Below are positions 1 through 3,000 of a stretch of 64,000 bases of DNA, in pieces. Position numbers: made by a program. Within the stretch, counting starts at the first letter, position 1. Each line of letters opens with the position of its first letter. This stretch comes from Escherichia coli O157:H7 (GTDB lineage: Bacteria > Pseudomonadota > Gammaproteobacteria > Enterobacterales > Enterobacteriaceae): assembly GCF_013167455.1 (NCBI RefSeq), contig NZ_CP038328.1. One strand, written 5' to 3'.

Positions 1-3000
1 GTATACAGATCGTGCGATCTACTGTGGATAACTCTGTCAGGAAGCTTGGATCAACCGGTAGTTATCCAAAGAACAACCGTTGTTCAGTTTTTGAGTTGTG
101 TATAACCCCTCATTCTGATCCCAGCTTATACGGTCCAGGATCACCGATCATTCACAGTTAATGATCCTTTCCAGGTTGTTGATCTTAAAAGCCGGATCCT
201 TGTTATCCACAGGGCAGTGCGATCCTAATAAGAGATAACAATAGAACAGATCTCTAAATAAATAGATCTTCTTTTTAATACCCAGGATCCCAGGTCTTTC
301 TCAAGCCGACAAAGTTGAGTAGAATCCACGGCCCGGGCTTCAATCCATTTTCATACCGCGTTATGCGAGGCAATCACCATGTTTTATCCGGATCCTTTTG
401 ACGTCATCATCATTGGCGGGGGTCATGCAGGCACCGAGGCCGCGATGGCTGCGGCGCGTATGGGTCAACAGACTCTGCTTTTGACACACAATATCGACAC
501 TCTGGGGCAGATGAGCTGCAACCCGGCGATCGGCGGTATTGGGAAGGGACATCTGGTAAAAGAAGTGGATGCACTCGGCGGTCTGATGGCGAAAGCGATC
601 GATCAGGCGGGTATCCAGTTTAGGATACTAAACGCAAGCAAGGGACCGGCAGTTCGCGCTACCCGAGCTCAGGCGGATCGTGTGCTCTACCGTCAGGCGG
701 TACGTACGGCGCTGGAGAACCAACCGAACCTGATGATCTTCCAGCAGGCGGTTGAAGATCTTATTGTCGAAAACGATCGTGTGGTCGGTGCTGTTACCCA
801 AATGGGACTGAAGTTCCGTGCCAAAGCCGTCGTGCTCACCGTTGGGACGTTCCTCGACGGTAAAATTCATATCGGTCTGGATAACTACAGCGGTGGCCGT
901 GCTGGTGATCCGCCGTCCATTCCGCTTTCTCGCCGTTTGCGTGAACTTCCGCTGCGCGTTGGTCGTCTGAAAACCGGGACACCACCGCGTATTGATGCTC
1001 GAACCATCGACTTTAGCGTGCTTGCGCAACAGCATGGCGATAACCCAATGCCGGTATTCTCTTTTATGGGCAATGCGTCCCAGCATCCACAGCAGGTGCC
1101 GTGTTATATCACCCATACCAACGAGAAAACCCATGATGTGATCCGCAGTAACCTCGATCGTAGCCCAATGTACGCAGGGGTGATCGAAGGTGTCGGCCCA
1201 CGCTACTGCCCGTCGATCGAAGACAAAGTCATGCGCTTCGCCGACAGAAATCAGCATCAGATCTTCCTTGAACCGGAAGGGCTGACTTCTAACGAAATTT
1301 ATCCGAACGGTATCTCCACCAGCCTGCCGTTCGATGTGCAGATGCAAATCGTCCGCTCTATGCAGGGGATGGAAAACGCGAAGATCGTGCGTCCGGGTTA
1401 TGCCATTGAGTATGACTTCTTCGATCCTCGCGACCTGAAACCGACGCTGGAGAGCAAGTTTATCCAGGGGCTGTTCTTTGCTGGTCAGATTAACGGCACT
1501 ACCGGTTACGAAGAAGCCGCTGCGCAAGGTTTGCTGGCCGGTCTTAACGCTGCCCGTCTGTCTGATGACAAAGAAGGTTGGGCTCCGGCGCGTTCTCAGG
1601 CCTATCTCGGCGTACTGGTTGATGACCTGTGCACTTTAGGAACCAAAGAACCGTATCGTATGTTTACCTCGCGCGCAGAATATCGTCTGATGCTGCGCGA
1701 AGATAATGCGGATCTGCGTTTGACTGAAATCGGTCGTGAACTGGGCCTGGTGGATGACGAACGTTGGGCGCGCTTTAACGAGAAACTTGAGAATATCGAG
1801 CGTGAGCGTCAGCGTCTGAAATCGACCTGGGTAACCCCGTCGGCGGAAGCTGCAGCCGAAGTGAATGCTCACCTGACTGCGCCGCTTTCCCGTGAAGCCA
1901 GTGGTGAAGATCTGCTGCGTCGTCCGGAAATGACTTATGAAAAATTAACCACGCTGACGCCGTTTGCCCCTGCGTTGACAGACGAACAGGCGGCGGAACA
2001 GGTTGAGATTCAGGTTAAATACGAAGGTTATATCGCGCGCCAGCAAGATGAGATCGAAAAGCAGCTGCGTAACGAGAACACCTTGCTACCCGCGACACTG
2101 GATTACCGCCAGGTATCCGGTCTTTCTAACGAAGTGATCGCCAAACTTAACGATCACAAACCGGCCTCTATCGGCCAGGCTTCACGTATTTCTGGCGTCA
2201 CGCCTGCGGCCATCTCCATTCTGCTGGTGTGGCTGAAAAAACAGGGTATGCTGCGTCGTAGCGCATAACGCATTAAAAATGCCTGGTAAGCCCCCGCTTA
2301 CCAGGCAACGCATCAAGAACAGGTAATCACCGTGCTCAACAAACTCTCCTTACTGCTGAAAGACGCAGGTATTTCGCTTACCGATCACCAGAAAAACCAG
2401 CTTATTGCCTACGTGAATATGCTGCATAAATGGAACAAAGCGTACAACCTGACTTCGGTCCGCGATCCTAATGAGATGCTGGTACGCCATATTCTCGATA
2501 GCATTGTGGTGGCACCGTATCTGCAAGGTGAACGGTTTATCGATGTCGGCACCGGTCCTGGACTGCCTGGCATTCCACTCTCTATCGTGCGTCCTGAAGC
2601 CCATTTCACTCTGTTGGATAGCCTTGGTAAACGCGTGCGTTTCCTTCGTCAGGTGCAATATGAGCTTAAACTGGAGAATATTGAGCCAGTACAGAGCAGG
2701 GTAGAAGAGTTTCCTTCAGAGCCGCCATTTGATGGCGTAATTAGCCGCGCTTTTGCCTCTCTGAACGATATGGTGAGCTGGTGCCACCATCTTCCTGGTG
2801 AGCAAGGCCGTTTCTACGCGCTGAAAGGGCAAATGCCGGAAGATGAAATCGCTTTGTTGCCCGAAGAATATCAGGTCGAATCAGTGGTTAAACTTCAGGT
2901 TCCAGCCCTGGATGGCGAACGTCATCTGGTGGTGATTAAAGCAAATAAAATTTAATTTTTATCAAAAAAATCATAAAAAATTGACCGGTTAGACTGTTAA

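Follow-up and report, generated by a model that had tools for sequence, protein, structure and literature searches.

Among the closest described systems is the origin of Escherichia coli K-12, whose unwinding element (DUE) carries three AT-rich 13-mers (L, M and R) summarized by the Bramhill-Kornberg consensus GATCTnTTnTTTT, which starts with GATC. In the model developed for this origin, ATP-DnaA on the left half of the DOR opens the M/R 13-mers together with IHF, and the T-rich strand is then held via TT[A/G]T(T) motifs (PMC5742627, PMC10325909). The DnaA-binding sequences required in the single-stranded DUE (ssDUE) are TTGT and TTATT (Katayama 2017, PMC5742627; Yoshida 2023, PMC10325909). 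The GATC sites of the same origin are the substrate of Dam and SeqA, and Jha and Chattoraj mutated 10 of the 11 K-12 chromosomal sites singly (2016, PLoS One 11:e0166722, PMC5145175). The site that they numbered GATC#2 is the GATC of the R 13-mer (primer jj533 GTTCTATTGTGTTCTCTTATTAGGATCGCAC, plasmid pJJ386).

The O157:H7 variant of this 13-mer is already known and was published in 2015. Frimodt-Moller et al. compared oriC across 59 E. coli genomes (Front Microbiol 6:1011, PMC4585315), and their Supplementary Figures S1 and S2 give the R 13-mer TATCTCTTATTAG, together with an 'SSDA box 2' of TTATCT, in five O157:H7 genomes (EDL933, Sakai, EC4115, TW14359 and Xuzhou21); according to their text, the variant 'demolished a GATC-site'. 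The 59 genomes include just one more natural R variant, GATCTCTTATTAA in E. coli ED1a, which resembles the O157:H7 one in affecting an outer position of the 13-mer, but this is the last base and the GATC is kept. We analyzed a stretch of 64,000 nucleotides from E. coli O157:H7 (contig NZ_CP038328.1 of assembly GCF_013167455.1), hereafter called the window, whose R 13-mer is identical in sequence to the published O157:H7 variant. The 2015 comparison covered 59 genomes without placement on an O55/O157 tree, comparison with other species or a functional test; added here are a count of the allele in 5,426 genomes, its ancestral state in strains 493/89 and LSU61, and the conservation of the ancestral base across species.

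The right 13-mer of the O157:H7 origin

Window 1-290 is the E. coli oriC, inverted with respect to its textbook orientation. The coordinates of its elements are collected in the table. The origin is located upstream of mnmG, as in K-12, and in relatives the adjoining gene is mioC. The K-12 oriC as delimited in RefSeq (origin_of_replication, 3925744-3925975) corresponds to window 37-268 in the MG1655 alignment. Across the unwinding element, the minus strand reads ...AAGATCTATTTATTTAGAGATCTGTTCTATTGTTATCTCTTATTAGGATCG.... The coding sequence of mnmG was placed using NZ_CP017442.1, whose position 1 is also position 1 of the window and which differs from the window at 14 positions over 50 kb. Window position 1 is the first base of many O157:H7 RefSeq records, which are rotated to GTATAC; this start lies just past DnaA box R4 on the right, and mioC and the right flank of oriC therefore fall outside the window.

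Table. Elements of the O157:H7 origin and its flank (window coordinates)
Feature	Position	Strand	Comparison or basis
Minimal oriC, L 13-mer to DnaA box R4	24..268	-	245 bp; MG1655 alignment
L 13-mer GATCTATTTATTT	256..268	-	K-12 sequence identical
M 13-mer GATCTGTTCTATT	240..252	-	K-12 sequence identical
TTGT ssDUE motif, extended to TTGTT by the substitution	237..241	-	Motif scan
New TTAT, overlapping TTGTT	235-238	-	Motif scan
Substitution, A on the plus and T on the conventional strand	237..237		K-12 3925775 is G
R 13-mer TATCTCTTATTAG	225..237	-	K-12 counterpart GATCTCTTATTAG
TTATT ssDUE motif in the R 13-mer, unchanged	227..231	-	Motif scan
Next GATC (GGATCG)	221..224		GATC position scan
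DnaA box R1 TTATCCACA	203..211	+	Spacing to the R 13-mer as in K-12, no indel
mnmG (gid) promoter-like site TTCTCA-16-TAGAAT	298..325	+	Identical in K-12
mnmG (gidA) CDS, flanking oriC	379..2268	+	RefSeq annotation of NZ_CP017442.1

We aligned window 1-500 with MG1655 (NC_000913.3, 3925300-3926500), and the alignment was free of gaps. The DnaA boxes (R1 to R4) and low-affinity sites are spaced as in K-12, and the three AT-rich 13-mers are present at the same distance from R1 as in K-12. The locus, the order of the elements, the L and M 13-mers, R1 and the spacings are thus those of the K-12 unwinding element. Three positions differ from MG1655 in this interval, namely 237, 78 and 450, the last of which lies inside mnmG, and only two bases (237 and 78) differ in the whole minimal origin. 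Both substitutions leave the DnaA sites R1, R2, R4 and R5M untouched.

At position 237, a G-to-T transversion on the conventional strand affects the first base of the GATC with which the R 13-mer starts and changes it to TATC. With GATA on the plus strand of window 234-237, and accordingly TATC on the minus strand, the Dam/SeqA tetranucleotide is absent. The consensus with its GATC start is satisfied by L and M, whereas R, starting with T instead of G, departs from it. Its position and its 12/13 identity nevertheless identify the R element as the orthologous 13-mer. The first-pass annotation had described an R 13-mer that lacks its GATC relative to K-12, and had proposed that one Dam/SeqA site of the unwinding element is lost. 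The K-12 sequence that it gave is correct, since MG1655 has G at the corresponding position and reads GATC there, and the loss is confirmed by the number of GATC sites in the minimal origin, which is 10 here and 11 in K-12. The K-12 spacings of 15 and 13 bp are replaced by a single gap of 28 bp in the DUE, between the GATC at 221-224 and that of the M 13-mer at 249-252, and the ten sites left still form a dense cluster, in which neighbouring sites lie near enough to each other for SeqA to bind cooperatively.

The second difference in the minimal origin, at window 78, sits between R2 and R3/C3, where K-12 has A (3925934) and the window has G on the conventional strand (AACAACGGTTGTTC). With GATC-intact flanks, the window-78 allele gave perfect matches to many diverse E. 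coli, and we rejected it as a lineage marker because it is common across the species. Apart from position 237, the oriC of the window is a haplotype common across E. coli.

Distribution and age of the allele

For a difference of a single base, the relevant question is whether it is an error or a real polymorphism, not whether it could arise by chance. We searched 5,426 complete RefSeq E. coli genomes, 5,424 of which had any oriC match, with a 41-base query centred on position 237, using megablast with an exact word of 28 bases, so that seeds can form only across the variant. The window allele was matched exactly in 296 of the 5,426 genomes; among the matches listed (about 100 of the 296), all are labelled O157:H7 or O157, or carry no serotype, with genome sizes of 5.3-5.8 Mb. 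The K-12 allele was matched in 5,116 genomes (about 94% of complete E. coli), so that 5,412 of the 5,424 genomes with an oriC match have one allele or the other. The O157 allele aside, the central 15 bp varies in at most about 12 of these 5,424 genomes. A sequencing or assembly error at the window base, which the first-pass annotation had raised as an a priori possibility, can be dismissed with near certainty, since 296 complete genomes, sequenced independently of each other in many laboratories and on many platforms, have the identical allele, which was also reported in 2015 for the five O157:H7 strains named above. The T allele being present in 296 independent assemblies, confirmation of the base in raw reads is unnecessary.

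A further change in oriC was observed in the O157:H7 strain 2-6-2 (NZ_CP038419.1), in which the GGATCC beside R1 has become GGTTCC at position 196 (window 196 by equivalence), so that 9 of the 11 oriC GATC sites are left in that strain. The position-196 allele is unique among the 5,426 genomes and could be either a real mutation or an assembly error.

The GATC at the 237 site is kept in the O55:H7 strains CB9615, RM12579 and 2013C-4465. When the window sequence from 210 to 2320, carrying the ancestral base at 237, was used as the query, exactly two genomes gave perfect matches, those of 493/89, the German sorbitol-fermenting O157:H- clone, and of LSU61, which was obtained from a deer. Read directly, both sequences have C at 237 of the plus strand and show no other difference from the window between 210 and 2320. 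A linked derived allele, C at window 2292, is present in 309 genomes (the O157 clade) and absent from the three O55:H7 strains. Thirteen genomes have the 2292 allele and lack the exact variant 41-mer; two of them are 493/89 and LSU61, and the other 11 of the 309 matched neither the variant 41-mer nor the queries for a perfect haplotype of 237 C and 2292 C. In these 11, the record may be broken inside oriC, or further SNPs may lie nearby. The distribution of the two alleles indicates that the 2292 change came first and that the oriC change followed later, on the branch of typical O157:H7. The change at 237 is therefore derived and recent. It probably had a single origin, after the split from O55:H7, 493/89 and LSU61, and was then inherited by typical O157:H7, an account that we favor as part of the overall explanation given below.

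Over the first 3,974 bp, the window differs from O55:H7 CB9615 only at 237, 2292, 2450 and 2659. The T at 2450 is shared with the O55:H7 strains RM12579 and 2013C-4465. The T at 2659 is absent from these two strains and from strain 4276, and is thus private to a sublineage or to the strain analyzed here; no genome in the RefSeq complete set matched the combination of 237 and 2659 alleles found in the window.

Differences from K-12 were also seen at dnaA. The DnaA protein (dnaA, window 49494-50897) carries a single substitution relative to K-12, P82S, at the junction of domains I and II, and its record, WP_000059116.1, is annotated in O55:H7 CB9615, RM12579 and 493/89 alike. In the dnaA promoter region, window 49267-49272 reads CTGGATCATCCTGTGGATAA in place of the K-12 CTGGAAAGTCCTGTGGATAA, which places an extra GATC directly beside the dnaA-promoter DnaA box and raises the GATC count between rpmH and dnaA to 10, versus 9 in K-12. 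This extra site is also found in O55:H7 CB9615 and 493/89. Both differences would fit the idea that the loss of the oriC GATC is mildly deleterious and has been compensated elsewhere, by the dnaA-promoter GATC, by DnaA P82S, or through seqA or dam. However, P82S and the extra promoter GATC occur in CB9615 and 493/89, which keep the oriC GATC, and are therefore older than the oriC substitution, so that neither co-varies with it. Within the window, we found no change that arose together with the substitution; the genes seqA, dam, hda, diaA and ihf are located elsewhere. Compensation of this kind appears highly improbable to us.

The gene order near the origin departs from that of K-12 at three O157-type islands (14872-21011, 26320-33170 and 42712-44881). 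They comprise an operon for the long polar fimbria lpf2, inserted between glmS and pstS, a group of type III effector genes with espY4 among them, and an effector gene of the ShET2/EspL2 family that adjoins mnmE and is frameshifted.

Conservation of the ancestral base was analyzed beyond E. coli by scanning one genome per GTDB species with the pattern ATCTNTTATTAG-N(8-22)-TGTGGATAAC, in which the base preceding the pattern was left free. The scan returned 97 matches, 94 of which were origins of Gammaproteobacteria, from Enterobacterales, Vibrionaceae and a few other groups. The ancestral G, and with it the GATC, was present in 94 of 94 of these origins, which the pattern selects for an E. coli-like R 13-mer and R1. 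The three matches with a base other than G were chance matches in Firmicutes. The invariance across species, together with the scarcity of other variants in E. coli, points to purifying selection on the G and makes strict neutrality of its replacement unlikely. Because the ancestral base is so strongly conserved, a small fitness or regulatory effect of the change is possible.

Strand opening and sequestration at the altered element

The substituted base lies directly 3' of TTGT, and the TTGT and TTATT motifs are both intact. As a result of the change, the number of TT[A/G]T(T) motifs rises from two to three (see table). With the replacement of G-C by T-A, the M/R 28-mer becomes less stable, its nearest-neighbour sum changing from -30.94 to -29.77 kcal/mol. 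In K-12, the M/R region contains a perfect 7-bp inverted repeat, AGAGATC-N11-GATCTCT (window 234-258, minus strand), which is the dominant element in the fold predicted for each of the single strands. The substitution shortens this repeat to 6 bp, and the repeat disappears from the predicted structure, with predicted ensemble free energies weakened to -4.75 kcal/mol for the T-rich strand (K-12, -6.26) and to -4.33 kcal/mol for the A-rich strand (K-12, -5.76); these energies are modest, and the advantage of the hairpins over shuffled sequences is not significant (z = -1.6 and -2.2). On these calculations, impaired opening of the element is not predicted, and if anything opening would be slightly easier.

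Other sequence features that overlap position 237 were also considered. In a DnaA-trio reading of the A-rich strand, the substitution changes a triplet from ATC to ATA, and this triplet is off the trio consensus in either form. Compared with AGATCT, the type sequence of the 6-mer box for single-strand ATP-DnaA, 'SSDA box 2' is TGATCT in K-12 (5/6 matches) and TTATCT here (4/6); this box may matter in vivo. Creation of a promoter in the DUE by the substitution was rejected at the threshold of our promoter scan, which found the mnmG promoter-like site, common to K-12, as the sole one in window 1-420.

As for sequestration, the nearest functional test is the GATC#2 mutant of Jha and Chattoraj, in which the same Dam/SeqA site is inactivated and oriC is otherwise intact. 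When GATC#2 was changed to GTTC, the generation time was 32.8 min (33.2 min in the wild type), the number of origins per cell 3.16 (3.28) and the initiation mass 0.41 (0.40), whereas the asynchrony index was about twice that of the wild type, at 10.2% versus 4.3% (PMC5145175). The authors concluded that, R5 apart, synchrony depends on none of the sites individually and that the capacity of oriC for SeqA is in excess, and they reported that GATC pairs efficient in SeqA binding may be up to about three helical turns apart (PMC5145175). The K-12 GTTC mutant, assayed only in rich laboratory medium, is a surrogate for the O157:H7 TATC allele: in the mutant, the second base was engineered from A to T, while in O157:H7 the first base has changed from G to T, which also extends TTGT to TTGTT, and the host was K-12, not O157:H7. 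By analogy with these published experiments, loss of the site would be tolerated in O157:H7 as well.

The same observations bear on whether the substitution might be adaptive, having retuned initiation in typical O157:H7 through easier or more stable opening of the DUE, which has gained an A-T pair, or through weaker occupancy by SeqA, a change possibly suited to life in the bovine gut or to a genome larger by about 20%. The lower stability of the M/R 28-mer, the gain of a TT[A/G]T(T) motif, the shortened inverted repeat and a single-strand structure weaker by about 1.5 kcal/mol on either strand all go in this direction, as does the presence of the change, at an otherwise invariant position, in 296 genomes of a very successful clone. 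However, the differences in energy are slight, the hairpins lack significance against shuffles, the K-12 mutant deprived of the R 13-mer GATC is near wild type, and the allele traces to one mutational event in one clonal lineage, in which hitch-hiking explains its fixation equally well. In addition, our literature search found neither a later paper on the variant in O157:H7 nor a phenotype tied to the substitution. We therefore regard an adaptive role as very unlikely.

Significance of the lost site

Taken together, these results make it likely that the substitution marks a clade, is either nearly neutral or deleterious to a very slight degree, and was fixed by clonal descent in an origin that remains K-12-like. 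The intact DnaA motifs and the redundant SeqA capacity are what lead us to this reading. At such an origin, ATP-DnaA on R1/R5M would open the M/R 13-mers with IHF, as in K-12, and the T-rich strand would be held through the unaltered TTGT and TTATT. After replication, SeqA would sequester the origin via the ten remaining hemimethylated GATC sites, its capacity being redundant, and the typical O157:H7 clone would have inherited the substitution with no functional redesign of its origin.

A selected retuning, combining the loss of a SeqA/Dam site in the DUE with a strengthened T-rich DnaA tract and a weakened duplex and hairpin, seems to us very unlikely; if it were true, initiation mass or the duration of sequestration would be altered in a prophage-laden genome about 20% above the size of that of K-12. 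With the substitution read instead as a nearly neutral marker, its importance is limited, and it amounts to an experiment of nature on a base that is among the most conserved in enterobacterial origins. A major pathogen clone lives with 10 of the 11 Dam sites of its origin, which fits the redundancy of SeqA sites described in K-12. The substitution also provides a single-base marker that distinguishes typical, non-sorbitol-fermenting O157:H7 from O55:H7, from 493/89, a strain of sorbitol-fermenting O157, and from LSU61.
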